Positions 196 to 60,893 of a DNA stretch of 64,000 nt are shown here, piece after piece (the first letter of the stretch is position 1; each line of letters starts with the position of its first letter). The stretch is from Candidatus Pacearchaeota archaeon (GTDB lineage: Archaea > Nanobdellota > Nanobdellia > Pacearchaeales > GW2011-AR1). The notes under the pieces were generated by a model that worked only from the letters and a program-made list of their open reading frames with translations, searched no databases and was not told the origin of the DNA. The stretch lies in assembly GCA_041660485.1 (NCBI GenBank), contig JBAZWF010000001.1, forward strand, positions 179,812 through 243,811, given 5' to 3'. The position numbers were made by a program, and so were the translations under genes.

Positions 196-1032
196 ATGGC
201 TGAAAAAGAAAATAAAAGTTCTAAACCAAAGTCTAAGAAAGTAGGGGTTCCTAAGCTAAATTTAGAAAATGAAAGAGAAGTTGCTTCTGATTTTGGAGTT
301 AAGATATATAAAAAATTTGATAAAATAGTAAAAGCAGTAGTACTTTTCGGTTCATCAACAAAAAATACATCATTATCTACCTCAGATATTGATTTAGTAA
401 TTGTAATTGATGATGTTTCTGTAAAATGGGATCAAGAATTAATATCTTGGTATAGAGAAGAACTTGGAAAATTAGTTTCTGAAAATCTTTATAACAAAGA
501 ACTTCATTTAACAACTGTTAAACTTAGCACCTGGTGGAATGATTTAATGAAAGGTGACCCAGTTATAATAAATATGATTCGTTATGGAGAAGCAATAATT
601 GATATTGGAGGATTTTTTAATCCATTAAAAGTTCTTCTTGAACAAGGAAGAATAAAACCTACTCCTGAAGCAATTTATACTGCACTTGGCAGAGCTCCTG
701 AACATTTCAAAAGAAGTAAATATTCTGTTTTAGGTTCAATAGAAGGATTATTTTGGACAATGGTTGATTCTTCACAAGCAGCACTGATGGCACATAATGT
801 TTCTCCTCCTTCACCTGAACAAATTCCAGTTTTATTAAAAGAAACTTTTGTTGATAACAATAAATTAAAAATAGATTATGTAATCTGGTTCAGAGATCTT
901 TATACTCTTCACAGAAAAATTGTGCACGGAGATGTCACAAATATAAAGGGCGAAGACATCGACATATGGCAACAAAAAACAGAAGATTTTCTTGGAAAAA
1001 TGATTGGACTTGTTAAAGAAAGCTTAGGATAA
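196..1032 (+). CDS. Minimal nucleotidyltransferase (pol-beta superfamily) with a C-terminal helical HEPN-like region; paralog of 10339-12126
   Basis: Motif VVLFGSSTKNTSLSTSDIDLVIVIDD (GS...DxD). GRIKPTPEAI and the C-terminal block align by eye with GKIKPSPEAI of the 595-aa protein. Confidence 0.75.
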   Translation: MAEKENKSSKPKSKKVGVPKLNLENEREVASDFGVKIYKKFDKIVKAVVLFGSSTKNTSLSTSDIDLVIVIDDVSVKWDQELISWYREELGKLVSENLYNKELHLTTVKLSTWWNDLMKGDPVIINMIRYGEAIIDIGGFFNPLKVLLEQGRIKPTPEAIYTALGRAPEHFKRSKYSVLGSIEGLFWTMVDSSQAALMAHNVSPPSPEQIPVLLKETFVDNNKLKIDYVIWFRDLYTLHRKIVHGDVTNIKGEDIDIWQQKTEDFLGKMIGLVKESLG

Positions 1033-1317: not shown

Positions 1318-2100
1318 TTACTTTTTAGATTTTTTAGCTTCTTCTTTAGCTTTTTCTATCATTCCAACGTAAACTTCTCCAATCATAGAATATGCTTTTG
1401 TCTTTTCATCTTCATTATATTTTGAAAGATTTTCAGCTACAAATGATTTAAAATATTCTGGATTAAGAGAATAACCTTTTTTTCCATCACGTTCAACTGC
1501 ATCTGAAAATGCAAACTGATATTTTTGTGCTTCAATTTGAAGGCGCTTTTTCATATATTCTTTAATTCTTTCAGTTCCTCTTATTTTTGCAAGTATATTT
1601 CTAACATATTTATTTTTTGCACTTTCAATATAAGCTTTTTCATCATATTTATCATTTTCAGGATTAACTATTTTTCTCCATTTATCAAGAGTCTTTTTTG
1701 CAACAACTCTCTTATTATGAGAATCATTTCCTTTAACTTCATAAGCTGGAAGTTCTCCTGCAAGTTCAATTAAAGCTTGAGGATTAAAGTTCATCATATC
1801 TTCTGCTATATTTGTATAATGAGGTTCAACTAGTGTTGCTAAATCTTTTTCAGCTTTCTTAGATAATTTAGGGATTTCTTTGTCAAATTCCTCAGCAAGT
1901 CGGTTTTCAGAAGTATCATAAATTAAAAGTTCTCTTTGTTCTGGGCTAACTTCCCCTTCACTAGAATCTAAAATTGCATTTATTAAATTAGGATTATATC
2001 TAAGAATTCCCTGTGAAAGACGTGATTTAGCATCTTTAAAGAGGCTAGATTTACCCACTCCTTCATATATTCCCTCAATTATTTTAGTTTCAAGTGTCAT
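1318..2100 (-). CDS. Hypothetical protein (260 aa, K/E-rich)
   Basis: Long ORF with genome-typical composition; no motif recognised. Confidence 0.6.
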   Translation of the reverse strand: MTLETKIIEGIYEGVGKSSLFKDAKSRLSQGILRYNPNLINAILDSSEGEVSPEQRELLIYDTSENRLAEEFDKEIPKLSKKAEKDLATLVEPHYTNIAEDMMNFNPQALIELAGELPAYEVKGNDSHNKRVVAKKTLDKWRKIVNPENDKYDEKAYIESAKNKYVRNILAKIRGTERIKEYMKKRLQIEAQKYQFAFSDAVERDGKKGYSLNPEYFKSFVAENLSKYNEDEKTKAYSMIGEVYVGMIEKAKEEAKKSKK

Positions 2101-2199
2101 AATTTTAGATATCTTTAAACTTTATAAATCTTTTGGTATTATCAACTTGATAGTAGTAACAAAGAAAAGGTTTAAAAAGGAGAAAGGAGAGGATAAGAG

Positions 2200-3261
2200 A
2201 TGAATAAAAAGTCATTTTTTAATGAGAGAGAAGCTGGAGAAATAAGAAATCTAGATGTTGAAAGAACTTATAATGCAAGAGGGCTTGTAAATAAAATTAT
2301 AGGTTTAAATCCAGATTGTGAAGCTGTTGAAATTAGATTTCCAATAACTCCTGGAAGATTTCTTGTTAAAGGATTAAATGGTGCAGAAGCATCAAGAAAA
2401 TGTTATAAACACGGAGATTTAATTGCATTAAGTCAGCCAGAATCACAGCAGGAAGCTTATAATTGTGTTAAAAGTGTGTTAGCAATAAGAGCAAGAGATT
2501 TTCATGAACAATTAGAATCAAGAAAAGAAGAAGATATTGATTTTGTTGGATATTCATTTAGACCGGTTCAGGGAAGAAATAGAGTTAAACGAGTTGTTCC
2601 GTTTGTTTGGTGTCCAGAAGCTGTTAGGTTATGGGGTTATGGTGAAAATATGACTAATGGAATAAATGTTAATGTTAAATACACTGATTCAAAGAAAGTT
2701 AAATATGAAGGTGGAGAAGTTCTTTGTGATGTTCCTTCAAGAACTAGAAAAGAATCAAGATATAAATTTAAACTTTTACATGTTCCAATAGATGGTTCAA
2801 CTGAAAGAAGTGCAATTGTCTGGGGTTTACAACCTGCTTTAGTTGTTGATGAAGAATCTGGAGAAATTAAAAGTAAAAGAATTCCTCATGACTTTTATAG
2901 AATTAAATATACAAAAGAAAATGATAGAGAAGGAAGCCAAAATATTGTTTTTTATCCTCATGATATTGCAGCATATATCGGAATAATTAAACAGCTTTAT
3001 TCAAGACATAATTTGACTCCTCTTGAAATGAATCCGTTTATGTTAGTTTCAAAAAAAGGAGCAGACTTTTATAAAAGAATTTGTAATAATGTTTTAATCT
3101 TTGACCCAACTTTAGAAAGCAAAGATAAACTTAGAAAATTGCATATTGATGAAAAGTCAATTCTTTTTGCAAGAGCAATCGGAGTTTTAGGGCATGATGA
3201 AATTGCATATTGGGATGCTGAAAGAGATGGAAAGTTGAAAGATTATAATTGGAGGATTTGA
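2200..3261 (+). CDS. Hypothetical protein, first gene of a 3-gene operon
   Basis: ORF preceded by AGGAGAAAGGAGAGG. Its stop lies 2 nt before the ATG of the next gene. No motif recognised. Confidence 0.7.
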   Translation: MNKKSFFNEREAGEIRNLDVERTYNARGLVNKIIGLNPDCEAVEIRFPITPGRFLVKGLNGAEASRKCYKHGDLIALSQPESQQEAYNCVKSVLAIRARDFHEQLESRKEEDIDFVGYSFRPVQGRNRVKRVVPFVWCPEAVRLWGYGENMTNGINVNVKYTDSKKVKYEGGEVLCDVPSRTRKESRYKFKLLHVPIDGSTERSAIVWGLQPALVVDEESGEIKSKRIPHDFYRIKYTKENDREGSQNIVFYPHDIAAYIGIIKQLYSRHNLTPLEMNPFMLVSKKGADFYKRICNNVLIFDPTLESKDKLRKLHIDEKSILFARAIGVLGHDEIAYWDAERDGKLKDYNWRI

Positions 3262-3263
3262 AA

Positions 3264-5276
3264 ATGGCAGAACAAATACAAATGGCAAGAGTTGTTGGAA
3301 CATTAAGAGAAGTTCTTAGAAAAAGATTAGAAGATAGGATTTTAGAAGTTATTGATGATCACGAAGAGATGTCTTTAGATTTTGAAGATGTTGAAAATAT
3401 TGCCTATGAAAATAATTTTACTGATATAATTGCTGGAATTGATGAAATTGATAGGCAAAATGGAAAAATTCAAAGGATAAGAGAGTTTGAAAGAGAGAGA
3501 AATAAACAAATAAGATCTGAAGAAAAAGAATTTGAAGAATATTTAATTTCTCATCCTGAAGAATTTAATAAATTTGAAGAAGGATTAAATGTCATGGACA
3601 ACCAGCAGGTAGTTAGATCTGGAAGATTAGATATTGTTGCTAGAGATAAAGAAGGAAAAAAAGCAAAAATTGAATTAAAGTCAAGAAATCAAGCTGCTAG
3701 ACATTATCATTTTCAGATTATGAAATATTTTAATGATAATCCTGAAGGTGATGAAAGAGTTATATTTCTTTCTAAATTAGATGATCCTGGGCTTAAAACA
3801 ATTGCATTTTCATTAGATGATTTTAGAAAACAAGGAAGAATAAAGTTTTTTGGTTATACTCAAAGTAATGGAGGGTATAATTATTTAGAAATTACTCCAG
3901 ATAATATTGAAAATCCAAAGCCAATTGATTGGGGAAAGGCAAAAAGAAAAAAAGATACTGATAAAATAAGGGTTGTAAGGAGAGCAGTTAGACAACCAGT
4001 TAGAAGAGAAGAAGATAAAACTCCTGAAGAAATTGAGTGGGATAAAGCGCCGTTATTTTACAAAGTTTTATTGTTTATTAAACCAGATTTAAAAAATAAA
4101 GAAAGATTTTTGCAATCTATTGAAGTAACTAAAAAACAGAAATCAGAATTAGAAAATTTAGTTTGTTCTGATAAATTTTCTTCTCAATTAATTGCTTTGA
4201 AGGAATATAGTGATATTCTCAATGGAAGATTTAACAATAGATTTCTTAGTGCAAGAGTTCATAAAATTATTGGATTTAATTTAACTAATAAAGCATCCAA
4301 ACAAGAAAATAAATATAGAGATAATTATAATAGTTTAAGAAAAGGATTTTATGAATTCCTTATAACTTTAGATTCTTCAAAAGAATTACCAATTGAAGAA
4401 TTAAAAGAAATAACTAAGAAAGTTAATACCTTGACAGGAAAAGTAAGATATTCTGATGAACATATTGTTAAATATAGACAATCATTAAGAGAAGTGATAA
4501 ATACCTATAGTGGACTAGAAAAAGAAATTGCTCATTATCTATTTATACATACTTGTCTTCCGGATCTTTATTTATTTAATTTATTTATTAAGTCTAAATT
4601 AGAAAGAACTAAGAAACTTGCTGAAATTGATTTAGATTTAGCAAAAATTTATTTAAAATTTAATTTAGGCACCATTGCTGCACTTAATGATATAAATTCA
4701 ATTGATGAAAAGGATAGAAATAATTTAGAGGTTATAAGAAACTTTGGAAAAGATAAACCGATATTAGTGGACGAGTATTATTTAGGAGTTTGTAATTTTG
4801 TAATAAATGATAATTTATTATATAAAAACATAATTGATAATTTAACAATATCTAAAATAAATGGATTTACCAATGGTGAAAGAATTCCTGCTGGGAGGAC
4901 TTTTCACCCAGCTGTTAAAATTGAAAAACCAATAGTTAGTGGACCTACAGCTTATCAAAAATTAGAACAAGCAATTCATATAAATGGTCATAGAGATTTG
5001 TTGACTAAAGATTCAAAACTTAGAATGAATTATTTTGTTGAAGATGTTAAAAATGCTGGTGTTAATGAAGATTATGTTAAGTCTATCGGAGAATCATTTA
5101 ATGGTTTTAATTTAGCTAAGAAATTACGTAAGAGAGAAAGTGTTCCAAGTGAAATTTCTGTAAGAAATTTCTTTGATGATGTTTATCTTAATTATGTTTT
5201 AAATAACAAAGTTCCAAGCCCTGAAGATTTAAATAGTCTTTATCAAAAAGATTGTGCAGTGGAGGAAGCTAAATAA
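3264..5276 (+). CDS. Large protein with an N-terminal NucS/DUF91- or Shedu(DUF4263)-like PD-(D/E)xK nuclease domain and a long helical C-terminal region
   Basis: EEYLISHPEEFNKFEEGLNVMDNQQVVRSGRLDIVARDKEGKKAKIELK (3621-3680 encodes GRLDIVARD...IELK). The ATG at 3264 sits 7 nt after GGAGGA; the track start at 3249 is a TTG. Confidence 0.7.
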   Translation: MAEQIQMARVVGTLREVLRKRLEDRILEVIDDHEEMSLDFEDVENIAYENNFTDIIAGIDEIDRQNGKIQRIREFERERNKQIRSEEKEFEEYLISHPEEFNKFEEGLNVMDNQQVVRSGRLDIVARDKEGKKAKIELKSRNQAARHYHFQIMKYFNDNPEGDERVIFLSKLDDPGLKTIAFSLDDFRKQGRIKFFGYTQSNGGYNYLEITPDNIENPKPIDWGKAKRKKDTDKIRVVRRAVRQPVRREEDKTPEEIEWDKAPLFYKVLLFIKPDLKNKERFLQSIEVTKKQKSELENLVCSDKFSSQLIALKEYSDILNGRFNNRFLSARVHKIIGFNLTNKASKQENKYRDNYNSLRKGFYEFLITLDSSKELPIEELKEITKKVNTLTGKVRYSDEHIVKYRQSLREVINTYSGLEKEIAHYLFIHTCLPDLYLFNLFIKSKLERTKKLAEIDLDLAKIYLKFNLGTIAALNDINSIDEKDRNNLEVIRNFGKDKPILVDEYYLGVCNFVINDNLLYKNIIDNLTISKINGFTNGERIPAGRTFHPAVKIEKPIVSGPTAYQKLEQAIHINGHRDLLTKDSKLRMNYFVEDVKNAGVNEDYVKSIGESFNGFNLAKKLRKRESVPSEISVRNFFDDVYLNYVLNNKVPSPEDLNSLYQKDCAVEEAK

Positions 5277-5277
5277 A

Positions 5278-6036
5278 ATGGGAATGAGAATGGGGATGGG
5301 ACTTTATCTTGTGCATTGTCAAAGACAATTGCTTAGCCAGAGCCAGAAACTTCAGCTAAAACAAATTATGATGCTGAAGCATGAGCTGGTTCATCCAGAG
5401 TTTCCTAATGCAAGCAAAGGATTTTCAGGAATGAGAATTGCGAATGCAATTCTTAAAGAAAGAGATTCTGTAGGATTATTAATTGGTGGGCTTGCTGAAG
5501 ATGTTTGGAATCAGAGAAGAAGTTTAGAAGAGCTTGCATCTCATAAAGATGTTGATGTAATGATATTAAATCCAGAATTTAAACTGGAAAAAAGATTTGA
5601 AGGTGGAATTGATTGGTGGATGCCATATAGCAAAAGATTGAAAGTTAGTGATGGATTTTTAGGTTATGATGCTAAAGTTTTTAACTGGAATGAAAATTTA
5701 AATGATGTTATCTTGCATTTTAATGTTAAAAAATCTTGTGATTTAAAACCCGGACTTTATATTGCTGGAAAAGAGTTTGTCGGAGCAATGAGAAAAGCAG
5801 AAATTGAAGGAAAAACAGAAAAAAATATTAAGTATGATGAAGAAGTTCTTGATAAATATGAAGAAAGAATAACTGGAAAAATGGGAAAAAGAGTTCCTAA
5901 ATATATTGAAAAAGAATTTGAAGGAAATATTCTTGATGCACCATATGATAATTCAAATAAATTTCCCATGTATTTTTCTGTTAGCCCGCTTGGATTAAAT
6001 GCAGTTGCTGAGATAAGGAAACAGAAGAGCGATTAA
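5278..6036 (+). CDS. Putative nucleotidyltransferase-fold protein, third gene of the operon
   Basis: LLIGGLAEDVWNQRRSLEELASHKDVDVMI resembles the GG-x(n)-DxD signature of Lnu/AbiEii-like NTases. The ATG is 1 nt after the upstream stop (the track start at 5254 is a GTG). Confidence 0.55.
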   Translation: MGMRMGMGLYLVHCQRQLLSQSQKLQLKQIMMLKHELVHPEFPNASKGFSGMRIANAILKERDSVGLLIGGLAEDVWNQRRSLEELASHKDVDVMILNPEFKLEKRFEGGIDWWMPYSKRLKVSDGFLGYDAKVFNWNENLNDVILHFNVKKSCDLKPGLYIAGKEFVGAMRKAEIEGKTEKNIKYDEEVLDKYEERITGKMGKRVPKYIEKEFEGNILDAPYDNSNKFPMYFSVSPLGLNAVAEIRKQKSD

Positions 6037-8705
6037 AAAATATCTAAAACTTTATTACCTTCTTCTTCAGTAATTTCTTCAAGAGATTCTGCTTGATTTT
6101 CTTCAATTTCTTCAACTATTGGAGCATCATATTCTTTAATTTCTTCAAGCTCATCAAACTCTCCGAAAAGCTGATGCATTGCACTTCTTTCTTCAGGAGT
6201 TGCCTCATCAGAACTTGCAGTATATGCCGGAACATGATTTTCATAACCTCTTTGTTCTTCCTCTTCTTCAACTTTCTTTTCAAGTTCTTCTTTTTTCCCC
6301 TCAATTCCTTCTGTTTTTGGAGCTTCTTCAACAGTAACATCTTCAGTTTCTACAAATTTTTCTTCTTTAATTTCTTCTTGTTTTATTTCTACAAGAGGTT
6401 TTGCTTTTACTTCTATTGCTGTTTCTTCATCTTTAGATTGATTTTTTTCAAGCTCTGCAACTAAAACAGAAACATCATGAGCAGCATCTGCATTTACAGA
6501 TATACTTGAAATTTTATTTTCAACTAAAAATTTAACCATATCACTATTACTTCCTGCTTGTCCGCATATGCTTGATTCTACACCTTCTTCATTACATGTT
6601 CTAATAACCCTTTTTATTGCATTTAACACAGCAGGATTTGTTTCATTATATAAATACTGAACTAATTCATTACCTCTATCAATTGCTAAAGTATATTGAG
6701 TTAAATCATTTGTTCCTAAACTTGCAAAATCAATTCCTACTTTTATTAAATCTTTAATTATAAGACAAGCAGCAGGTGTTTCAACCATTATTCCAAACTT
6801 ATAATTTTTAATTCCAGCTGCATCAACTAATTTTTTAGATTCTTTAACTTCTTCAGCAGAAATTATTTGAGGTAACATTATTCCAAATATTTTATCAGGA
6901 TATTTTTGAGAAGAAAGTCTCACTGCCTCTAATTCTGCTTTTAAAATCTCAGGGTTTTTAAGAGAAAATCTAACTCCGTGCATTCCTAACATTGGATTTA
7001 ATTCAATTTTTTTAGGAGCTCCTTCTAAATTGCTAAATTCATCTGTTCTAATATCAGAAGTTCTTATCCAAACTTCTTGGAAATGCTCTGCAATTTTAGA
7101 AATTCCCTGTTCTAAAACTTTTGAATATTCACTAAGCTTATCTTCTTTTTGATAAGCAATTGGATGTTTTCCAGAAGAAGCAATTATTCCTTCTAATCTT
7201 AATAAACCAACAGCAGAACATTTAGTTAGTGCAGCTCTTTCTGCAAATGCAGGCAAATCAACAATAACTTTTATTTTTGTTTTTGTTTCTATAACTGGCT
7301 TTATTTCAACTAACTTTGTTTCTGTAGCCCCTTCATAGACTTTTCCATTAAATCCATCGACTGTTACAATTTGTCCATCAACAAGTTTTTTTGTTGCTTC
7401 GCCAGTGCCTACAACAGCAGGAATACCCATTTCTCTGCTTACAATTGCTGCATGACTTGTTATTCCTCCTTCATCAGTTATAATTGCCGCAGAACGCTGC
7501 ATTGTTATAACCATATCAGGATTTGTCATTTCAGTTACAAGAACATCACCTTTCTGAACTCTATCTAATTGAGTTAAATCTTTAATTATTCTAACAGTTC
7601 CAGATGCAACTCCTTGAGAAGCACCTAAACCAGACAATAATAATTCTCCTTTAATTTCTTCTCCACCTTTCTTAGCTTGAGTTGTTATTGGACGAGTTTG
7701 AATAATATAAATTTCTCTGCTTTCAATTGAAAATTCAATATCCTGAGGTTTTCCATAATGCTCTTCAAGTCTTAAGGCATAATTTGCAAGACTTTTAATT
7801 TCACTTTCTTCAAGAACCTGATCTTTACTCCTTGTTGGAGAAAGTTTTACTTCTGAAGTATCTCCTTGAGAATCTCGTACAATTGCAATTTTTTTCTCAG
7901 AAATTTTTTTCTCAAGTAATTTTAATTCTCTTGAAACAATATAATTATCAGGATTAATTTTTCCTGAAACAATTCCTTCACCAAGTCCCCAAACAGCTTC
8001 AATCATTACATCATTATTTTCTTTAACAGGATTACTTGAAAATATAACTCCTGATTTATCAGAATCAATCATTTTTTGCACAACAACGGCTAATGCAAAT
8101 TTCTCCTTACTAAATCCACGTTTTTTTCTATAATAAATTGCTCGTGCTGTGAAGAGACTTGCAAGAACTTTTTTTACTGATTCTATCAATTGTTTATTTC
8201 CTTTAATATTAAGATAACTTTCTTGTTGTCCTGCAAAACTTGAATCATCTAAATCTTCAGTTGTTGCTGAACTTCTAACTGCAATAAAAACCGGTTCATT
8301 ACTATTTTTTAAAATACTCAAAGCATATTTGCTTGCTTTTTCTAAAGCTTGTTTATCAATACTTAAATTTTCATAAGCTTCTGTAATTTCTGTAGCCATA
8401 TCATCTGGCATCTCTGCACTAATAATTAATTCACGAATTTTCTTTGCTTTTGCTTCTAAATCTAAGGTATCATCAACATCAATGCTGTCAAGAATTCTAT
8501 ATAGTTCGTCTTTAATTCCACTCTTTTCAATAAATGCATAATAACCTTTTGTTGTTACAACAAATGCAGGAGGAACTGGAAATTTTGCATTAAACATTTC
8601 TGCAAGATTTGCTCCTTTGCCTCCAGCTACCGGTCCTGAATTCTTATTTAATTCAGAAAGCCATCGAATATACTCATTAGAACTTTTTCCACCTCTTTCT
8701 ACCAT
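6033..8705 (-). CDS. ppsA: Phosphoenolpyruvate synthase (pyruvate, water dikinase) with a ~140-aa acidic C-terminal extension
   Basis: N-terminal GGKGANLAEM, phosphohistidine motif GGITSHAAIVSREMGIPAVVG, and GTNDLTQYTLAIDRGN of the PEP-utilising barrel. Confidence 0.9.
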   Translation of the reverse strand: MVERGGKSSNEYIRWLSELNKNSGPVAGGKGANLAEMFNAKFPVPPAFVVTTKGYYAFIEKSGIKDELYRILDSIDVDDTLDLEAKAKKIRELIISAEMPDDMATEITEAYENLSIDKQALEKASKYALSILKNSNEPVFIAVRSSATTEDLDDSSFAGQQESYLNIKGNKQLIESVKKVLASLFTARAIYYRKKRGFSKEKFALAVVVQKMIDSDKSGVIFSSNPVKENNDVMIEAVWGLGEGIVSGKINPDNYIVSRELKLLEKKISEKKIAIVRDSQGDTSEVKLSPTRSKDQVLEESEIKSLANYALRLEEHYGKPQDIEFSIESREIYIIQTRPITTQAKKGGEEIKGELLLSGLGASQGVASGTVRIIKDLTQLDRVQKGDVLVTEMTNPDMVITMQRSAAIITDEGGITSHAAIVSREMGIPAVVGTGEATKKLVDGQIVTVDGFNGKVYEGATETKLVEIKPVIETKTKIKVIVDLPAFAERAALTKCSAVGLLRLEGIIASSGKHPIAYQKEDKLSEYSKVLEQGISKIAEHFQEVWIRTSDIRTDEFSNLEGAPKKIELNPMLGMHGVRFSLKNPEILKAELEAVRLSSQKYPDKIFGIMLPQIISAEEVKESKKLVDAAGIKNYKFGIMVETPAACLIIKDLIKVGIDFASLGTNDLTQYTLAIDRGNELVQYLYNETNPAVLNAIKRVIRTCNEEGVESSICGQAGSNSDMVKFLVENKISSISVNADAAHDVSVLVAELEKNQSKDEETAIEVKAKPLVEIKQEEIKEEKFVETEDVTVEEAPKTEGIEGKKEELEKKVEEEEEQRGYENHVPAYTASSDEATPEERSAMHQLFGEFDELEEIKEYDAPIVEEIEENQAESLEEITEEEGNKVLDIF

Positions 8706-10338: not shown

Positions 10339-12126
10339 TTATAAAATAATCTCAAAATCACCTAACTCTTTTCTTAATATTTCAAAGACTTTAGAATTTG
10401 ATTTTACTTGTAATTTTCCTTTCTGCCCTGCAACTGCTTTTTCAAATTCTTCAATAGTTGAATCCTCAAGTTTATTTGTAATTTTTTTAATTTCTGTACC
10501 TCTAACAAGAAAAGTTCCTTGTTCTGTCATTAAAACTTCTGCTCTCTGGTCTTTACCATAAAGTATCTGCATTCTTGATTTGTCTATGGTTACTAAATCG
10601 CATCTTTGTCCATAGTCAATTAAATGATTAATAAGGATTGTTGAATCTTTTCTTGCATTCTCAACGTCATTCTTATGTATTTTTCCTTTTTTAAATTCAC
10701 TAATAGCTTTTTCAATATCTTTTAATGTTTGAAGCATTTTTGGAGGCATTTTTCCTTTTTTAACAAGCTCTTTATCAAATAAATCAATTAGTTGTAATTT
10801 TGATTTCTTTCCAAACAAATTTTCAAGAATTGTAAACACATCTTTTTCTATTTGCTCAACTAATTTTTTCTGGCTAATTTTTTCAATTTCTTCTCTTAAT
10901 TTCTTCATTCTTTTTACATAATCTTCAGTATCCTTTATCAGTTTGTCAACTTCTTCTCCTTTAATTTCTGTAATTTTCCCGTGTTCATAGTCCTTATATA
11001 TTTTAATTATATTGTCAAGAATATCAGCATATTTTTTTTCAAGAACTTTTTCTTTTTCTACAAATGTTTCTTTAAATATCTGAGCAGTATCTTTTGGAAC
11101 AGGCGGAGGAAGTCCGTATAACATTAACAATGCTTGTGAAGGAGTTATTACAGCCCAATAAATATCTCCTACAACAATATCTAACAATCTTCTTTTTGCA
11201 GTTTTATCTACTTTGTCTCCCATTGACATAAACATATCAATTGCTTCAGGAGATGGCTTGATTTTTCCCATTTTAAGAAGCAATTTCCAAGGAATAAATG
11301 TTCCTCTGTCATATAATGGAACTCCATCTCGGATAAAAGTAAACATAACTGGATGAGCATCTTTAACAGCTTCCCAGAAATCAGTTAAAAGATAAATTTG
11401 AGGTTCTAATTTATTTTTTGCTCCTGAAATTGCAGCAGCATCTGCAAGATATTGGTAAATAATACTTCTTAGTTTTTCTCTTAATTCTAAACGAGGCATT
11501 CTTTTTACATCTGTATCATCAATAATTATGAAAACATCAACATCAGAAGTTTTTGTTGCTGTTCCTCTAACAAGTGAACCTGCAATAACATAACTGCTTA
11601 CATATTTTTCAAACTTTCTCATTACTAAACTTTTATGAACTTCTGCAACTCTTAATGCTCCCAATAAACCTTTATCATATAACGGGAAAGACATTGCAAT
11701 TGCTGAACTAAATTCATATCTTGAATCCATTAAGAAATTCCAGATATCAACCGGAGTAATAATATGAAACCAAAGTTTTGGTTTAATAGATTTTGTAAAT
11801 TCAACAACTTCTTTTTTTATTTTAGGAATTTCTTTAAATTTTTCTTCTGGAACTAAAATCATTATATGAACTCTCTTGTCTTTTTTTTCAGATTCAGGAA
11901 TATCCTCTTCTTCTTCAATTTTAGGAATTGATTGAGGAGGCAATAGTCCAATAGCCAAAGTATACGAGAATTTTTTAAGAATAAATTTTTTAACCTTATC
12001 TAGCTCATCTTTTCTTTTTTCCATTTCTTTTCTTTCTGCTTCTGGCATTTCTGCAATTGCATCTTTAGCAACATATTTCTTAGAATCATTCAATTCTTTA
12101 TTAAGATTTTTTTCTTCGCTTACCAT
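10339..12126 (-). CDS. Nucleotidyltransferase-domain protein with a degenerate N-terminal NTase-like module, an active-looking NTase module and a HEPN-like helical C-terminus
   Basis: YVIAGSLVRGTATKTSDVDVFIIIDD; paralogous by eye to 196-1032. Confidence 0.75.
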   Translation of the reverse strand: MVSEEKNLNKELNDSKKYVAKDAIAEMPEAERKEMEKRKDELDKVKKFILKKFSYTLAIGLLPPQSIPKIEEEEDIPESEKKDKRVHIMILVPEEKFKEIPKIKKEVVEFTKSIKPKLWFHIITPVDIWNFLMDSRYEFSSAIAMSFPLYDKGLLGALRVAEVHKSLVMRKFEKYVSSYVIAGSLVRGTATKTSDVDVFIIIDDTDVKRMPRLELREKLRSIIYQYLADAAAISGAKNKLEPQIYLLTDFWEAVKDAHPVMFTFIRDGVPLYDRGTFIPWKLLLKMGKIKPSPEAIDMFMSMGDKVDKTAKRRLLDIVVGDIYWAVITPSQALLMLYGLPPPVPKDTAQIFKETFVEKEKVLEKKYADILDNIIKIYKDYEHGKITEIKGEEVDKLIKDTEDYVKRMKKLREEIEKISQKKLVEQIEKDVFTILENLFGKKSKLQLIDLFDKELVKKGKMPPKMLQTLKDIEKAISEFKKGKIHKNDVENARKDSTILINHLIDYGQRCDLVTIDKSRMQILYGKDQRAEVLMTEQGTFLVRGTEIKKITNKLEDSTIEEFEKAVAGQKGKLQVKSNSKVFEILRKELGDFEIIL

Positions 12127-24052: not shown

Positions 24053-24206
24053 CCCTTCATAGCTTAGTGGTTTAAAGCGCCTGGCTGTAGACAATGTCTA
24101 GGGTGGACTGTTCCGTATGGAATATAGAATGAAACCTGATTAGAATAAATCCGCTACGGATTTAGCAGACCCCGGGAGATCCCCAGTTCAACTCTGGGTG
24201 GAGGGA
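24053..24206 (+). tRNA. tRNA-Tyr (anticodon GUA) with a ~80-nt intron in or next to the anticodon loop (about 24092-24171)
   Basis: Acceptor CCCTTCA/TGAGGG-type pairing (CCCTTCA with TGGAGGG, one G-U), D arm GCTT...AAGC, anticodon arm CCTGG-CTGTAGA-[intron]-CCGGG, T arm CCCAG-TTCAACT-CTGGG, discriminator A. Confidence 0.8.
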
Positions 24207-54587: not shown

Positions 54588-57500
54588 TTACCCTTTTAAG
54601 GGATTTCTTCCTTTAAATTCATCAAGTTTCTTTTGAAGTCTTGTTGTATCATAATATCCTTTTTCCTTCCATTCTCTTAATTGTTTCTCAAGATCACCTA
54701 GTTCTTCTTTCTTAACTTCTTTTCTTCTTATCTTTCTTTTTATCTCTCTAGCTTTTCTTCTTGCAGCTTTTCTTTCAACTCTTACAAACTTCTTTCTTGC
54801 TTTTACTTTTGCTCTTATCGCTTTTCTTTCAGCTCTTGCTTTTTCTCTTATTAATTTCTTTTGAGCTTTTTCTCTTGCTCTTATTATCTTTTTCTCAGCT
54901 TTCGCAACCGCTCTTTTAATTCTATATTCTTTTATTTTTCTTGGGATTTTTTTAACTTTCTTTGCCATTGAAGCAATCATTCCCTCTTCTAACTTAGATA
55001 CTCCATAGTATTTCTTCTGTTTCCATTCTTTCAACTTATCTGACATTGAAGCAAACATCTTTCTTCTAGGTTTAACTGCAGGCATTTCAATTGGCTTTAT
55101 CACAGTTGGCTTCTCAATTCTCACAGCTCTTTCTCTTCTTACTTTTCTAAATCTAATCTTAACTTCAATTCCTGAGAAGAACTTCTTAATCTTTCCAACT
55201 GCGCTTCCAGCTACTCTTCCAATTCTTTCTTCTATTCCAATTCCAGGTCTTGCCGGTTTCACAGCTCTTTCAATTTCTCTTCTTGCTTTGAATTGAGGTA
55301 ATTTAATCTTCTTCAATTTCATTCCCTTAATACCTGAAATTTTTTCAATAATTTCTTTTCTATGCTTAATTATTGCATAAACAACTAATATCAATAAAGA
55401 TATCCATAAGATTAATTTCAAATAATACAACCAATCAAAGTATGCTTTCTTAATAATACAAGGCGCACATGAACCTCCACAATCAACATCAGTTTCATCA
55501 AAGTCTTTAATTCCATCAAAACAGAAATTACAATAACCTGCAAATGAAGAAGTAATAAGTCCAATATCTAATTTTTTTAATCCAGAAACCTGGCTTGATT
55601 TAAGTCTGCTTACTAATTTATTAGAAGCAATATCATAAACTTCAACATAATCTTCATAACATATTTTTGAGTTTACAATTCTTACTGGAGTTCCAACATC
55701 ACAAGAACTATAATTTACAGTATTATTCTCACATTTTTTAGCATCAGAACAAAGACTAAATTGCTGTCCAGATAAAACAGGTTTTCCTTGAAGAACATCA
55801 GTTACGCTATAATTAAATTCACAAAGAGAATTTTCTCCACATTTAAAATCAGGAATACAAGAACACTCTTGCTGATAGGGTTTATTTAAATTTGTTCCGC
55901 ATTCATTTAAATCAACACAGTCTTCAGCATATTTAAATCCAGGCTCTTTACAAACACTCCATGTACAATACCAATTTTCTTCACAAAGAGTAAGATTAGA
56001 AGATACTTTAACATCCCATAAAACTTCCTGAATATTAAGCCCATTGCTAATTTCAGCTTTTATCTTTGAATCTTTCAAAAATCTTTCAGTACTAAAACTT
56101 TGCAAACTATCAGTTCCTGAATCTTGTTTTCTTAAAGTAGAATCTAAATACCATTTAATTGTTAAAGGTTCACTAACACTATCTACCATAGTAACTGAAA
56201 ACTCAATTGAAGAACCATTTGCAATTATTAAAAATAATTCTTGAGGAGTATAAGTAATAATTAAATTTTTTATACAAGATTGAGTTTCTGTATAAGTAAG
56301 ATTAGTTTCATCACATCTATTTCTATCTGTCCAGATTCTACTATGAACTCCCCCTTCACATATATTCCATACACCATATTCCCATAAAGGAGTACATCCG
56401 CACGCTCTAAACTCAGTTTCAGTACTTCCACATCCATCACTTCTTGTTCTTGTTTGTTGATTATTTACACAATCACTCCAAGCACTCCAAGCACTCCAAG
56501 AAGAAGTACATCCCCCTTCTCCTTTATTATGAACTAAAACATTATTTGCATAGAAATTATGATATTTATCAATTGATTTTAAGTTATAAGTTTGAATTAC
56601 TTCATTCCAACAATTAATTGATTTTATTTCTTTATATTTCAAATCGTCAAACATAACATAATCTCCAACAATTAAATCACTTACAAAGCCCATTGCACTA
56701 TTTTCTTTTAAAGTTTCTTTTGAAGAAATTGCCTTCCATCCCTCATTTGTATAAACTGGATGTTCTTTTGTTAATTCAAGTTTAGAATTATCAGAAAATA
56801 CCAAAGAACACATATGATTTCTAACAGGTGTTTCAATTTCTTCAACTCTGCCAATATCATTTATTTTATTTTTCTCATTATAACTAAGAATATCTTCTCC
56901 AACTTTAACATCTTCAATATTTTTTTCATTTCCATCACTCATTAATATTTTTGTTCCAGCAGGGAAACAAGATGTAGGAACATCAGTACAACTTTGTGTT
57001 TCTACTTCTGTTCCTCCACAACCATCTGTTCTTGAACGTGTTTGAACACTTCCAGAACAAGCACTCCAAGCACTCCAAGCACTATAACTCGGAGTACATA
57101 CTTCTTTATCAGCGTGAATTGCACTTCCAATATATGTTCCATAATTATCATTACTTAAAGTTACCTCCCATCGTATAAATCCTCCAAAACTTTTATTAAC
57201 AGTTACATTTGCCCTATAGGAACCATTAACAAGTTTAATTATTCCTTTTTCGGGATAATAAGTTGGCCCATAAGGCTGTTGAGCAGAATTTGTTGAATTA
57301 GCACTAATATTCTGTGGATCGTAAACAAATGTTCCAGTTTCATTTATTTTAGTTATATTAATTAATAATGTAGCGTTATCTCCATCATAATAACCTCCAA
57401 ACGCTCTTAGATTTACCATTGTCAAACTAGTAATATATCTAACAATTGAAAAGTTAGTATATGATTCATTAATTGCCTTAGAATAATATTGTGAAGGAAG

Positions 57501-60500
57501 TGTATAATTAACTAATAAAGAATTAGTTCCTGCACTTAAAGAGGATTTACTATAAGAATAAGAACAATGTCCAGAATCATTTGTATAAGCAGTTGTAATA
57601 AAACTATTATTATTATAAAAATAACATGTTGCTCCTGCAACTCCTTGATTTGTTTCATTATAAACTCTTGCAGTTAAATTAACAGATTTCGCAACAATCC
57701 CCATATCATCTTCTCCGGTAACTAAGCTATTTCCTCTAACTAATTCAATCCCATTTTCAGGATATGTAAAATTAATTGATACAGAAGGATATTTAGTTGA
57801 AAAAAACACAGAAGTAAAATTAATATTATTTGCACTATCATTACAAGTAAATACAACATTATTTGAACCAGAAGCTAAAATAGGATAAGTAGAATAAAAA
57901 TAAGTCTCATTAAATCTATTCATAGTAATATTTGTCATCAAATTCAAACTAAATTTGCAAGAATCAAGGTTTTCTGAACCACTTACATTAAATTCAATTA
58001 ATGATGGCCCATAACTATCATTTAATGGAGAAATAATATTAAGCAATGGGAAAGTAGTATCTATTATCAAAAAATTAGGATCACTAAAGTATTCGGTGGT
58101 TATACTCTCATCACCTAAATTCAAAGTATAAATACATGAAACAAACCAATCATAATTATTATCTGATAAAGTTTTTGAAACTGTTTGATAAGTCCCATTA
58201 GCCGGAGAAATAACAGTATCTTCAGAAATTCCATTAATAATTAAAGAACAACTATCCACCTGAGGACCGGTATAATAATAAACAAAATTCTGTGAAGGGT
58301 TATTTGAAATTAAATTATTCTCAGGAGAAACTAAATAAATTGTAGGTTCAGGAGGATTTCCTAAAACTTCAATGCTTCCAGTTGATGTCTCAGCAATATT
58401 TCCTGCATCATCATAAAGATAAAATTTATATGAATAAGTTCCGGTATAAACTCTTTTACTATAATCCACTAAATAAGATGTCCCGCCAATTGCAACAGGT
58501 GAATCATTTTGCCAAACACCATTTGGATTGCTTGAAAAAATAAATCTGCTTAAATTAAAATTATCATTTGCTAAAACTCCAAAGTGAGCAAAAGTATTGT
58601 TATAAACTCCTCCAGTGGAATAAAGTCCACTATAAGTTGGAGCAATATTATCAATTTGAACAGCCCATAAATCTCCTTTTCTATTATTATTTGTAGGAGT
58701 AGCTGCATCATTAACACTTATATTTGCATATTTTATTCCTGAACTTGCAGTGCTTATATTTGCAAGTATATTCCATGAACTATTAAATAAAGGAGCCATA
58801 CTTCCAGAAGAGAATGTCATATTTGTCCATAAACTTCCATTTAAATTAATTAAATATGCCTGAACATAATTTATTCCAGCAGCAACAAAAGGAGAATCAG
58901 TTACAGTTGCAGTTAAATTAACTCCCTGATTATTTTTAACACTTGATTGTCCTATTGGATATACTACTTGCATATCAATAACAATTGGTTTTGTTCTATC
59001 AATTATATAATGAATAGTATCAAAATTAGAATTCCCAGAATTATCATATGCCATAATACGAATATCATAACCCTCACTTAAATTTGAAAAAGAAGCAGTA
59101 TTCCAAGTGCAACTATAAATATTGGCAGAAGAAATACGGTTTATGCAAGTACTTATATTTGTCCAGCTTGTAACAGTAGAATTTTTATATTGGAAATGAG
59201 CTACTCCCAACCCATGATTATCAGAACCATTTGCCCTTATTATTACAGGCCCATTAACAAAAGAATTATTTGAAGGGGAATAAATATAAATATCTGGAGG
59301 AGTTGAATCCTGAGTAGTCAAAGGCAGATAATCAATATTATAGTTATTAATTACATAAGTTTGATTACAAATAGAATCTCCGTCAGGATCTCCGCATGTT
59401 TGAGAACGTCCAGTTCCAAGAGAATTAACCCAATAATTTCCACCAATATAATTTCTACCAATTATATTTGTTGTAAGTGTTTTTGTTTTATTCAAATAAT
59501 TAAGATAGCTAGCACTATTTGAAAAAGAAGCAATTGACCCAGTTGAATTAAAGATATTATTAGAAATAAAATTAGAACCTGAACTACTCATTTGTATTGC
59601 AAGAGAAAATGAAGCAACAGTATTGTTAACAATAAAACTATTCCCACTTAATGAATATGATATTCCTATACCTCCTGCAGTTAAAGCAGTTAGATTACTA
59701 TTAGTAATATTATTATAATAATTATAATTGTTAAATCTTATTGCATAATTTGTTCCTATTCCATTAATTAAAATATTATTTGAATCAATAATTGTTGAGT
59801 TTATCCCTCCAGTTAAATATACTCCATAAGCAGAAGTTCCAGAAGTTACAATAGAATTATTTAAAATACTATTTCCAATTCCATATAAAGACAAAGCAAT
59901 TCCATAAGCACTTGTATTAGTAGTATTAATTATATTAGTAGAAAATATATTTGAATAAGATTTCATATAAGAATATATTCCATAACCTGAAGTTCCTAAA
60001 GATAATATTTTATTTGAAGTAAAATTATTATTGCTTGAATTAAATAAATAAACTGGATAAGCACTTGAACCAGCAGTAGTAATATTATTTCCTGAAATAA
60101 CTCCAATAGATGAACCTAATAGATATATGCCATAAGCAGAAGTTGCACTTGTTTTAATAGAATTATTTAATATTAAACTTGAATTTGATTGCTGTAATAA
60201 ATAAATAGAATAAGAACCATACCCGCTTGTATTAATAATATTATTATTTATTGAACCAGACTTATATTTATTAAAATAAATTCCATGATTTACAGAATTA
60301 GAAGTTATTGAGCCATAAGTTGTAATGCTATTATTTTCAATTGTTGCATTTGTCCCATTCTGAAAATAAATTGCATAACTATTTGTCCTTGTTGCACTTG
60401 CCTGAGACATTTTACAATCTCTAACAATACTATCATTATAATTAACAGAAGCAATACCATAACCATTTGTTGTTTTAGAATAATTAATTAAATGCCCGCT

Positions 60501-60893
60501 ACAATTCAAAGTAACTTTATTTGCTTTTATATTAAAACAAGTTCCTGTAGATAAAACATCTAAAGTAAGAATATAAACTGAATTTGAAACAGTTAGGTTA
60601 GTGCAATTAGAAATATAAAAAACATTTACTTCCTCATCTTCTAATATTCCAAATCTTCCTGTAAAAAGTCCAAAAATATACTGCCCAACAGCTTCTATAC
60701 TTGCAATAACTCTTTGTGCAAATGTTGTAGATGTAGATTCTGTTTGTGCAAAATATCCTTGCTTATTATCAGAAGTATAGCTTGCAGAATCTCCTTGAAA
60801 AGCATAAACAATTGAAAAAATACCGGTTAAAAAACCAGTAAATAACATAAACATTACAATAGCTAAAGTATATTTTAAATTAAGTGCTTTCAT
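54588..60893 (-). CDS. Giant (2101 aa) surface protein: signal peptide, parallel beta-helix repeats, Ig-like region, TSP1-like repeats flanking a Hint domain, Cys-rich modules, one TM and a ~270-aa polybasic cytoplasmic tail
   Basis: Uninterrupted 6.3-kb ORF. PbH1-like NNSI..TS..SAYGIYL repeats. WSAWSAWS-C motifs. TM LILWISLLILVVYAII. Confidence 0.9.
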   Translation of the reverse strand: MKALNLKYTLAIVMFMLFTGFLTGIFSIVYAFQGDSASYTSDNKQGYFAQTESTSTTFAQRVIASIEAVGQYIFGLFTGRFGILEDEEVNVFYISNCTNLTVSNSVYILTLDVLSTGTCFNIKANKVTLNCSGHLINYSKTTNGYGIASVNYNDSIVRDCKMSQASATRTNSYAIYFQNGTNATIENNSITTYGSITSNSVNHGIYFNKYKSGSINNNIINTSGYGSYSIYLLQQSNSSLILNNSIKTSATSAYGIYLLGSSIGVISGNNITTAGSSAYPVYLFNSSNNNFTSNKILSLGTSGYGIYSYMKSYSNIFSTNIINTTNTSAYGIALSLYGIGNSILNNSIVTSGTSAYGVYLTGGINSTIIDSNNILINGIGTNYAIRFNNYNYYNNITNSNLTALTAGGIGISYSLSGNSFIVNNTVASFSLAIQMSSSGSNFISNNIFNSTGSIASFSNSASYLNYLNKTKTLTTNIIGRNYIGGNYWVNSLGTGRSQTCGDPDGDSICNQTYVINNYNIDYLPLTTQDSTPPDIYIYSPSNNSFVNGPVIIRANGSDNHGLGVAHFQYKNSTVTSWTNISTCINRISSANIYSCTWNTASFSNLSEGYDIRIMAYDNSGNSNFDTIHYIIDRTKPIVIDMQVVYPIGQSSVKNNQGVNLTATVTDSPFVAAGINYVQAYLINLNGSLWTNMTFSSGSMAPLFNSSWNILANISTASSGIKYANISVNDAATPTNNNRKGDLWAVQIDNIAPTYSGLYSTGGVYNNTFAHFGVLANDNFNLSRFIFSSNPNGVWQNDSPVAIGGTSYLVDYSKRVYTGTYSYKFYLYDDAGNIAETSTGSIEVLGNPPEPTIYLVSPENNLISNNPSQNFVYYYTGPQVDSCSLIINGISEDTVISPANGTYQTVSKTLSDNNYDWFVSCIYTLNLGDESITTEYFSDPNFLIIDTTFPLLNIISPLNDSYGPSLIEFNVSGSENLDSCKFSLNLMTNITMNRFNETYFYSTYPILASGSNNVVFTCNDSANNINFTSVFFSTKYPSVSINFTYPENGIELVRGNSLVTGEDDMGIVAKSVNLTARVYNETNQGVAGATCYFYNNNSFITTAYTNDSGHCSYSYSKSSLSAGTNSLLVNYTLPSQYYSKAINESYTNFSIVRYITSLTMVNLRAFGGYYDGDNATLLINITKINETGTFVYDPQNISANSTNSAQQPYGPTYYPEKGIIKLVNGSYRANVTVNKSFGGFIRWEVTLSNDNYGTYIGSAIHADKEVCTPSYSAWSAWSACSGSVQTRSRTDGCGGTEVETQSCTDVPTSCFPAGTKILMSDGNEKNIEDVKVGEDILSYNEKNKINDIGRVEEIETPVRNHMCSLVFSDNSKLELTKEHPVYTNEGWKAISSKETLKENSAMGFVSDLIVGDYVMFDDLKYKEIKSINCWNEVIQTYNLKSIDKYHNFYANNVLVHNKGEGGCTSSWSAWSAWSDCVNNQQTRTRSDGCGSTETEFRACGCTPLWEYGVWNICEGGVHSRIWTDRNRCDETNLTYTETQSCIKNLIITYTPQELFLIIANGSSIEFSVTMVDSVSEPLTIKWYLDSTLRKQDSGTDSLQSFSTERFLKDSKIKAEISNGLNIQEVLWDVKVSSNLTLCEENWYCTWSVCKEPGFKYAEDCVDLNECGTNLNKPYQQECSCIPDFKCGENSLCEFNYSVTDVLQGKPVLSGQQFSLCSDAKKCENNTVNYSSCDVGTPVRIVNSKICYEDYVEVYDIASNKLVSRLKSSQVSGLKKLDIGLITSSFAGYCNFCFDGIKDFDETDVDCGGSCAPCIIKKAYFDWLYYLKLILWISLLILVVYAIIKHRKEIIEKISGIKGMKLKKIKLPQFKARREIERAVKPARPGIGIEERIGRVAGSAVGKIKKFFSGIEVKIRFRKVRRERAVRIEKPTVIKPIEMPAVKPRRKMFASMSDKLKEWKQKKYYGVSKLEEGMIASMAKKVKKIPRKIKEYRIKRAVAKAEKKIIRAREKAQKKLIREKARAERKAIRAKVKARKKFVRVERKAARRKAREIKRKIRRKEVKKEELGDLEKQLREWKEKGYYDTTRLQKKLDEFKGRNPLKG
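56526..56969 (-). other. Hint (intein-like / BIL-type) domain, 148 aa, inside the giant surface protein
   Basis: CFPAGTKILMSDG...TKEHPVY...NFYANNVLVHN followed by Lys, not Cys/Ser/Thr. Confidence 0.8.

Follow-up and report, generated by a model that had tools for sequence, protein, structure and literature searches.

Does a tidy run of three genes, one of which encodes a nuclease, amount to a single system, and would such a system act in defence? The question is raised by positions 2200–6036 of the 64,000-nt stretch of Candidatus Pacearchaeota DNA analysed here, which we refer to in its entirety as the window. Three genes follow one another closely on the plus strand of this region; we call the first, middle and third of them g1, g2 and g3 respectively. 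A sequence-only reading of the window had seen in them an operon centred on a nuclease, with an organization resembling that of anti-phage systems. We find that g1 is repeatedly a neighbour of g2, in no fewer than three arrangements, in Woese- and Pacearchaeota-type DPANN archaea, whereas g3 is an unrelated, sporadic gene that here lies between g2 and a convergent phosphoenolpyruvate (PEP) synthase gene.

Gene neighbourhoods separate a g1–g2 pair from g3

The first gene, g1 (2200–3261, plus strand), encodes a 353-amino-acid (aa) protein that is conserved in Woese-, Pace-, Nano- and Aenigmarchaeota of the DPANN group and has no assigned function. Its neighbour g2 (3264–5276, plus strand) encodes, from an ATG, a multidomain protein of 670 aa in which a NucS-type PD-(D/E)xK core is combined with long helical extensions, and g3 (5278–6036, plus strand), also read from an ATG, specifies a 252-aa member of a small, sporadically distributed family. 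Because each of the three open reading frames (ORFs) has homologues, 194 for g1, 11 for g3 and 85 cluster representatives besides itself for g2, we regard all of them as real genes.

Gene neighbourhoods were compared in 24 fetched loci, one of which (L024) was too short to inform; hidden Markov models (HMMs) of the three families were run over the ORFs of the other 23. Several of these represent the same locus (L011 and L015; L013 and L016; L001 and L002; L003 and L004; L019, L020 and L021; L022 and L023). The scans of genomes and metagenomes for loci of g2 relatives used two peptide patterns and returned only four and three loci, so that the absence of g2 loci elsewhere cannot be inferred from them. 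Homologues of g1 and g2 in other loci are designated g1h and g2h.

Linkage between g1 and g2 was seen in five of the seven g2 loci with readable flanks (the window, L018, L010, L012 and L011). In the window g1 is followed by g2 after a 2-nt gap. The order is reversed in L018, where g2h precedes g1h with a 4-nt overlap, in an unrelated neighbourhood of eIF2-gamma, NAC and Sec61-beta genes. The two are divergent neighbours in L010 and L012, where methionyl-tRNA synthetase (MetRS) and g1h genes on the minus strand are followed by g2h on the plus strand; and in L011 g1h lies 3.4 kb upstream of g2h, with a TrmB-family gene and a gene for an 848-aa helix-turn-helix protein between them. The linkage, which had escaped the sequence-only reading, is genuine across genomes.

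The third gene shares none of this history. An HMM scan found g3 absent from all seven other distinct g2 loci, the downstream flanks being short in L013/L016 and L014, and g1 and g2 were absent from four contexts of g3 homologues (three by HMM scan of DNA, one from a gene table). In L017, which holds the best g2 homologue, g2h abuts a PEP synthase gene whose product is 59% identical to that of the window, and this is the window arrangement minus g3. A conserved three-gene system, as first proposed, is thus not borne out: co-occurrence of the triad, sought by HMM in the 23 loci, was seen only in the window. We conclude from this comparison of neighbourhoods that the triad splits into a real pair and a passenger gene.

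The pair itself is asymmetric, in that g1h occurs without g2h within ±8–10 kb in five distinct loci (L001, L003, L005, L019 and L022). It directly precedes the MetRS gene in L005, L019 and L022, with the ribosomal protein L15e gene upstream in the latter two, and lies beside genes for cysteinyl-tRNA synthetase (CysRS) and fibrillarin/Nop5 in L003. In L011 and L012 g2h is placed between g1h and L15e, within the synteny MetRS–g1h–(g2h)–L15e–topoisomerase I–Xer that is common to both loci. The flanking housekeeping proteins of these two loci are 61–65% identical; g2h is 48% identical in its N-terminal part and 29% in its C-terminal part. From the shared synteny, this contrast in identity and the g1 loci that lack g2, we infer that g2 has been largely vertically inherited, evolves fast and has repeatedly been lost. 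The sequence-only reading had named as its own refutation that these might be universal housekeeping genes, unlinked elsewhere; part of this is right, as g1 is core-like and occurs without g2, but g1 and g2 are linked.

In L014 the usual position of g1, between MetRS and g2h, is occupied by a gene for a 449-aa protein (1545–2894, minus strand) with a SWIM-like CxC…CxH pattern. We considered it as a divergent g1 and rejected it, as hhalign found no homology.

g2 has a NucS-type nuclease core

Relatives of g2 are distant enough that a word-indexed search returned the query alone, and an exhaustive HMMER search was needed. The latter gave the 85 cluster representatives mentioned above, 22 of them below 1e-30; full-length relatives are 610–720 aa long and 23–34% identical. 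The nuclease signature quoted in the sequence-only reading is present (FEEGLNVMDNQQVVRSGRLDIVARDKEGKKAKIELK at aa 104–139), and the NucS/DUF91-type PD-(D/E)xK core that it announced is upheld both by profiles (Pfam, NCBIfam and the 2vld sequence) and, at the level of fold, by Foldseek. Invariant columns, HMM alignment, Foldseek, Pfam and NCBIfam together place the nuclease domain at 3576–3908 on the plus strand (aa ~105–215).

An alignment of 20 g2 sequences has E87, G107, L108, G120, D123, E137, L138, K139, Q151, Y155 and F168 as invariant residues, E87 lying just upstream of the nuclease domain. The catalytic-type residues among them map to 3630–3632 (D123), 3672–3674 (E137), 3678–3680 (K139) and 3714–3728 (Q151 and Y155), all on the plus strand. 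As read from the alignment, D123, E137-x-K139 and Q151-x3-Y155 constitute the complete PD-(D/E)xK plus QxxxY signature of RecB/NucS-type nucleases.

The Pfam model NucS_C matched the window protein at aa 87–143 with 22.6 bits (E = 1e-4), just under its gathering cut-off of 24 bits, which several relatives exceed (26–42 bits). The NCBIfam NucS model (NF003270) gave E = 5.9e-8 and 32.1 bits, against an equivalog cut-off of 216. When the g2 family profile was compared with the sequences of the Protein Data Bank (PDB), Pyrococcus abyssi NucS (2vld) was matched at E = 2.8e-7 and EndoMS (5gke) at E = 7e-4, with the D, ExK and QxxxY residues of g2 in register with both structures in the HMM alignment. 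Comparison of folds led to the same enzymes: for the AlphaFold2 model of g2, which has a mean predicted local distance difference test score (pLDDT) of 78, the best Foldseek matches in the PDB were NucS/EndoMS (2vld_A, E = 2.7e-3, probability 1.00, root mean square deviation 3.0 Å over 112 columns). The next matches of the core were the nuclease domains of XisH, SfsA, PaqCI and Card1/Can2 (probability 0.85–1.0, E 0.03–0.7); this likeness is one of fold, and the domain architectures and partners of these proteins differ from those of g2.

NucS/EndoMS (PF01939; 2vld, 5gke), the mismatch-specific endonuclease of archaea and actinobacteria, is therefore both the best sequence-profile match and the best fold match of g2, and has the same RecB-like PD-(D/E)xK domain. 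Beyond that domain the two proteins part. NucS has ~250 aa in two domains; g2 has 670 aa, with ~450 aa of additional helical modules, and where NucS has its N-terminal domain, g2 gives no Pfam match and has a helical region of ~100 aa instead. No recognizable terminal PCNA-binding motif was seen in g2, and NucS is not paired with g1. We considered g2 as a NucS orthologue and rejected this, given its score far below the equivalog cut-off, the missing NucS N-terminal domain and its length. Judged by its sequence, g2 is a fast-evolving accessory enzyme with an N-proximal NucS/RecB-type nuclease domain, in which the catalytic-type residues are intact.

The nuclease core of g2 is embedded in helical modules

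The sequence-only reading had guessed that the region following the nuclease is mostly helical, and the AlphaFold2 model agrees. Helices also precede the core. The N-terminal region (3264–3572, plus strand; aa 1–103) comprises, by DSSP assignment on the model, helices at aa 2–30, 38–49, 53–96 and 98–103; it contains an LRKKLEDxVL motif that is conserved in the alignment, and on the evidence of the model these helices may serve dimerization. The core is followed by a basic linker predicted to be disordered (3942–4022, plus strand; aa 227–253; KPIDWGKAKRKKDTDKIRVVRRAVRQPVRR), for which pLDDT falls below 50.

Beyond the linker lie two further modules. The central one (4053–4838, plus strand; aa 264–525) is all-helical in the model, and is tandemly duplicated in g2 relatives of 860–1200 aa (P0136, P0139, P0140, P0149, P0150, P0163, P0180 and P0184), in which HMM positions ~256–525 match twice. 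The C-terminal one (4950–5267, plus strand; aa 563–668) is also helical and carries a conserved NFFDD...Y...G.vP...L..LY motif. It occurs in the protein database on its own or in other fusions as well, many matches spanning just aa ~430–662; a Pfam scan of proteins that carry only this module found no domain at their N-termini. Foldseek found no fold match in the PDB for either the central or the C-terminal module. Fusions of g1 or g3 to g2 were sought among the 85 g2-family proteins, and none was found.

g1 is a strongly conserved protein of DPANN archaea

The conservation of g1 is of a different order. The best 120 of its 194 homologues are 48–74% identical over their full length; Pfam domains are lacking throughout, and the source bins are those of Woese-, Pace-, Nano- and Aenigmarchaeota. 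The verdict of the sequence-only reading that g1 has no recognizable motif stands, as Pfam, NCBIfam, PADLOC and PHROGs gave nothing, and a Pfam scan of all 56 aligned family members gave noise only. An AlphaFold2 model built from that 56-sequence alignment reached a pLDDT of 90.1 and a predicted TM-score of 0.90. Foldseek comparison of this model with the PDB and BFVD returned nothing better than E = 0.5 (TM ~0.1), and the g1 profile had no match among PDB sequences. We therefore consider g1 a strongly conserved, core-like protein whose modelled fold is apparently undescribed. Castelle et al. (2021; PMC8204110) describe a module of 51 families, mostly of unknown function, that is widely distributed among Pacearchaeota and Woesearchaeota; the distribution of g1 is of the same kind, although g1 and g2 could not be mapped to the family identifiers of that paper.

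Copies of g1 directly beside g2h form a divergent group, which we call type B (L012 6875–7882, L010 1355–2341 and L018 6018–6983). They are 27–35% identical to other g1 proteins and 35–47% identical to one another, whereas the neighbouring MetRS is 61–68% identical between the same genomes. Type B proteins retain 10 of the 20 residues that are invariant in the ordinary type A, and among the residues conserved in both types K, R, Y and S are frequent (K4, R131, Y147, S180, R181, Y237 and Y259); from their composition these residues may resemble nucleic-acid-binding or phosphoryl-transfer sites. In the window and in L011 a type A g1 occurs together with g2. The divergence of type B may have arisen by co-evolution with g2, by allele replacement or through relaxed constraint.

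g3 has a nucleotidyltransferase-like motif

Homologues of g3 number 11, are 32–43% identical to it, and are hosted by DPANN archaea and by bacterial-type contigs. The motif quoted in the sequence-only reading is present (LLIGGLAEDVW...HKDVDVMIL, aa 67–97). In an alignment of 12 sequences it extends over 5485–5613 (plus strand) as G70-G71, K90-D91-V92-D93-V94 and G110-x-D112-W113-W114, and the invariant residues of the 12-member family are G70-G71, K90, D91, D93, V94, G110, D112, W113, W114, N140 and P158-G159-L160. The pattern hG[GS]…[DE]h[DE]h…h[DE]h, the carboxylate triad of Pol-beta-type nucleotidyltransferases (NTases), is reproduced by G70-G71, D91, D93 and D112.

With these enzymes (MNT, NTP_transf_2) g3 shares the arrangement hhGG-(19 aa)-KDVDV-(17 aa)-GIDWW, but its spacing from GG to DxD is longer than usual and it has no HEPN partner. 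One of the 12 members matched Pfam NTP_transf_6 at E = 0.046; NCBIfam searches of the 12 members and comparison of the g3 profile with the PDB gave nothing relevant. Alignment of g3 by hhalign with MNT-type NTases from the local loci placed DVDV opposite SDxD, at a probability of 0.14%. As no profile method gives statistical support, the NTase reading of g3 stays at the level of the motif: the motif first noticed is there and is conserved family-wide, but homology to NTases has no profile support.

A g3 homologue on a bacterial-type contig (L006 8001–8783) sits inside a tight operon of deoxynucleoside triphosphate metabolism (L006 4259–10392) that includes genes for ThyA, dCTP deaminase, dCMP deaminase, two P-loop kinases, dUTPase, Tmk, nucleoside deoxyribosyltransferase and dihydrofolate reductase; RF-1, FtsX and L9 are encoded on the same contig. 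This context hints at a nucleotide-related role for the g3 family, and suggests transfer between ultra-small archaea and bacteria.

Organization of the locus

Direct reading of the junctions confirmed the earlier statement that the three plus-strand genes have spacers of 2 nt and 1 nt and are packed like an operon. The TGA of g1 (3259–3261) is followed by aa and the ATG of g2 at 3264, with GGAGG at 3251–3255; the TAA of g2 (5274–5276) is followed by a and the ATG of g3 at 5278, with GGAGGA at 5261–5266. Alternative starts exist for g2 (an upstream TTG at 3249) and g3 (a GTG at 5254); the ATG of g3 agrees with the MGMxMGM N-terminus conserved among its homologues. The stop codon of g3 overlaps that of the convergent PEP synthase gene (6033–8705, minus strand).

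Upstream of g1, a divergent intergenic region of 99 nt contains putative A/T-rich, TATA-like promoter elements, picked out by inspection on the plus strand (TTTATAAA at 2121–2128 and TTTAAAAA at 2171–2178), and directly 3′ of these, before g1, comes a GGAG-rich ribosome-binding stretch (2180–2193, plus strand). The short spacers and the Shine–Dalgarno-like sites before g2 and g3 make co-expression likely in this genome, where g1, g2 and g3 are probably co-transcribed. No obvious shift in G+C content, which is ~29% for the window, occurs across the three genes.

Divergent from g1 lies a gene for a 260-aa lysine- and glutamate-rich protein (1318–2100, minus strand) with no family match; L001 and L002 have a weakly conserved counterpart (26% identity) in the corresponding place. 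Two paralogous NTP_transf_2-type nucleotidyltransferases are encoded in the window (196–1032, plus strand, 278 aa; 10339–12126, minus strand, 595 aa), and another in L013 (3651–5474). These paralogues share a long conserved C-terminal helical extension. One of them is just upstream of the g1–g3 locus, and its L001 orthologue is inverted relative to g1.

Other features of the window

The sequence of the window was found in one public run, a groundwater DNA metagenome. The proteins encoded in the window have homologues that carry the annotation Woesearchaeota, Pacearchaeota or Nanoarchaeota, and among its genes are those for ribosomal protein L10e, PEP synthase and DPANN-style nucleotidyltransferases.

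Just upstream of the nucleotidyltransferase gene at 196 is a 52-nt tandem direct repeat (9–60 and 61–112, 88% identical), and its 16-nt core, ATTACAAAAGTTTAAA, is present a third time at 148–163; to judge from its position, the repeat at 9–163 may be regulatory. At 24053–24206 (plus strand) a tRNA match in Rfam covers the full model (45 bits); because it spans 154 nt and was not called by ARAGORN, it is probably an intron-containing archaeal tRNA. A giant ORF of 2101 aa occupies 54588–60893 on the minus strand.

Tests for defence and mobility

PADLOC gave no match for the three window proteins, and PHROGs and NCBIfam nothing beyond the NucS core of g2. The Shedu/DUF4263 likeness that had been ascribed to g2 found no support, as neither the window protein nor 20 relatives matched these models in PADLOC or Pfam. 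With Shedu SduA g2 shares only a general logic, as both join a PD-(D/E)xK nuclease to a large, variable part that is not catalytic; the nuclease is C-terminal in Shedu and N-proximal in g2, and the context of g2 is one of housekeeping genes. In the PDC-S11 candidate the nuclease core is N-proximal, as in g2, but the models span 314–375 positions and have no equivalent of the C-terminal modules. All PDC systems have the status of candidates, and the evidence found for PDC-S11 is correlative only (bioRxiv 10.1101/2025.11.08.687337).

Nor do the genes around the locus suggest a defence island: they encode PEP synthase, MetRS, L15e, topoisomerase I and Xer, although g2 is patchy and an MNT–HepT pair takes its slot in the closest relative. 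Beside g2 no methylase, other known defence gene or mobile-element gene was seen, the one exception being the Xer-type recombinase, a chromosomal one, that L011 and L012 have at a distance of ~4 kb. Flanking repeats that would mark g2–g3 as an insertion were not found. Pattern-limited scans of IMG/VR viral contigs for all three families returned no relatives, and neither, at the sensitivity used, did searches of INPHARED phage records (g2 and g3) and PLSDB plasmids (g3). On its gene content, then, the neighbourhood appears to be a housekeeping one that is largely vertically inherited.

Discussion

The reading that we prefer, over which we find belief and doubt evenly balanced, is that g1 and g2 form a lineage-specific nucleic-acid-processing pair, to which g3 has been added as an unrelated insertion. 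In this scheme g2 would cut DNA as a metal-dependent endonuclease. Oligomerization would be mediated by the long N-terminal helices, and binding of substrate, g1 or both by the basic linker together with the two C-terminal helical modules. We take g1 to be the nucleic-acid-handling partner of g2 because of the many invariant K, R, Y and S residues that it contains. Together the two would constitute a chromosomally inherited module for processing or repair of DNA, or possibly RNA, acting in repair, recombination or maintenance, and not a mobile anti-phage island; since g2 has been lost in several lineages, it would be dispensable and g1 would not.

Several observations weigh against this scheme. 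L013 and L014 have g2h without g1h nearby, and part of the g1–g2 adjacency (L010, L011 and L012) could be inherited synteny and not independent evidence. No activity can be assigned to g1, whose role as a partner we infer from its sequence. Identity of g2 is 23–48% where flanking proteins are 59–68% identical. The presence of g2 is patchy, and in L001, the closest relative of the window (73% identity for g1, 68% for PEP synthase), the interval between g1 and the PEP synthase gene holds an MNT–HepT toxin–antitoxin pair instead of g2 and g3 (L001 9227–10130, also L002 3005–3908; a Polbeta/MNT protein of 169 aa and a HepT of 137 aa), so that what lies next to g1 varies. Patchiness and replacement of this kind are both typical of conflict or defence genes. 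Furthermore, g2 relatives weakly match the PADLOC candidates PDC-S11, S02 and S26 (E 2e-5 to 1e-2).

Some of these points lend themselves to the main rival, in which g2 would be a defence nuclease against viruses, working alone or with g1 and following a restriction- or Shedu-like logic. The core would then act as effector, and sensing would fall to the helical C-terminal modules, which evolve fast; a variant of this idea has g2 ‘guard’ the core protein g1. We think this unlikely, while giving it more weight than any other alternative. It would account for the fast evolution of g2, which is most marked towards the C-terminus (between L011 and L012, 29% identity there and 48% in the N-terminal part), for its patchy presence, for the varying copy number of the helical module across the family and for the toxin–antitoxin pair in the same slot of the closest relative. 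The weak matches of the relatives, which extend to a Type I restriction endonuclease model, are all confined to ~70 residues of the generic nuclease core, however, and the window protein has neither a PADLOC nor a DUF4263/Shedu match. The housekeeping surroundings, in which the position of g2 is kept between genomes whose flanking proteins are 61–65% identical, also speak against defence, as do the lack of methylase, known defence or mobile-element genes beside g2 (save the distant chromosomal Xer) and the failure to find g2 on viral contigs or in phage records; and a partner as highly conserved and core-like as g1 would be unusual for a defence system. That all three genes make up one system, comprising an unknown protein, a nuclease with sensor and an NTase generating a signal, we hold to be very improbable indeed. 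The spacing of the genes and the Shine–Dalgarno-like sites before g2 and g3 are what such a system would show, but g3 is missing from the seven other g2 loci (downstream flanks being short in L013/L016 and L014), L017 has g2h directly against PEP synthase, the four inspected contexts of g3 homologues lack g1 and g2, and no profile supports the NTase homology of g3.

Two further possibilities keep g1 and g2 together in other ways. The PD-(D/E)xK fold also includes RNA-cutting enzymes, and the pair might act on RNA, in processing or quality control of tRNA or rRNA, as could be read from the position of g1, which is almost always beside translation genes (MetRS in L005, L019, L022 and L010–L012; CysRS and fibrillarin/Nop5 in L003; L15e in L019). 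We consider this improbable: the closest relatives of the g2 core (NucS, EndoMS, XisH, PaqCI and Card1/Can2) are DNA-acting or DNA-related nucleases, and proximity to aminoacyl-tRNA synthetase genes may be plain inherited synteny. A still fainter prospect is that g2 is a selfish, free-standing homing-type endonuclease gene beside its conserved target g1, the linked g1 allele having diverged to escape cleavage. Such an element would be expected to be variably present and variably oriented beside a highly conserved gene, as g2 is, and the low identity of the g1 copies directly beside g2h in L010, L012 and L018 to other g1 proteins (27–35%, with MetRS at 61–68%) fits escape. Yet g2, with 670 aa and large conserved helical modules, is far bigger than known homing endonucleases, its position has been kept over long divergence, and the g1 found beside or close to g2 in the window and L011 is of the normal type A; translational coupling with g1, in the window and L018, suggests cooperation over parasitism. 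Of these alternatives, none displaces in our judgement a lineage-specific processing pair.

A bolder form of the pairing, which we advance quite tentatively, would make g1 the founder of a fold and enzyme class that has not been described and belongs to the core of Woese- and Pacearchaeota-type DPANN archaea, with g2 as a dedicated accessory nuclease that docks onto it. If this were so, g1 would be a nucleic-acid enzyme with an invariant K/R/Y/S site, and the two would form either a lineage-specific machine for DNA or RNA transactions or a guard-type immune nuclease watching over an essential host protein; cultured organisms would have nothing comparable.

DPANN archaea have tiny genomes, and a large share of their conserved genes has no assigned function. 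Among such proteins g1 is one of the better conserved (about 50–75% identity across orders), and its confident model without a match in the PDB makes it a good target for work on structure and function. The nuclease domain of g2 is already known, and with g2 the NucS_C domain family gains a long architecture that is new; it is the pairing of g1 with g2 and the fold of g1 that appear undescribed. As this locus illustrates, three neatly packed genes that encode a nuclease and an NTase-like motif do not suffice as evidence for defence. For g1, the repeated association with a NucS-type nuclease that by its residues is catalytically intact provides a first functional handle, and it points to nucleic-acid processing.

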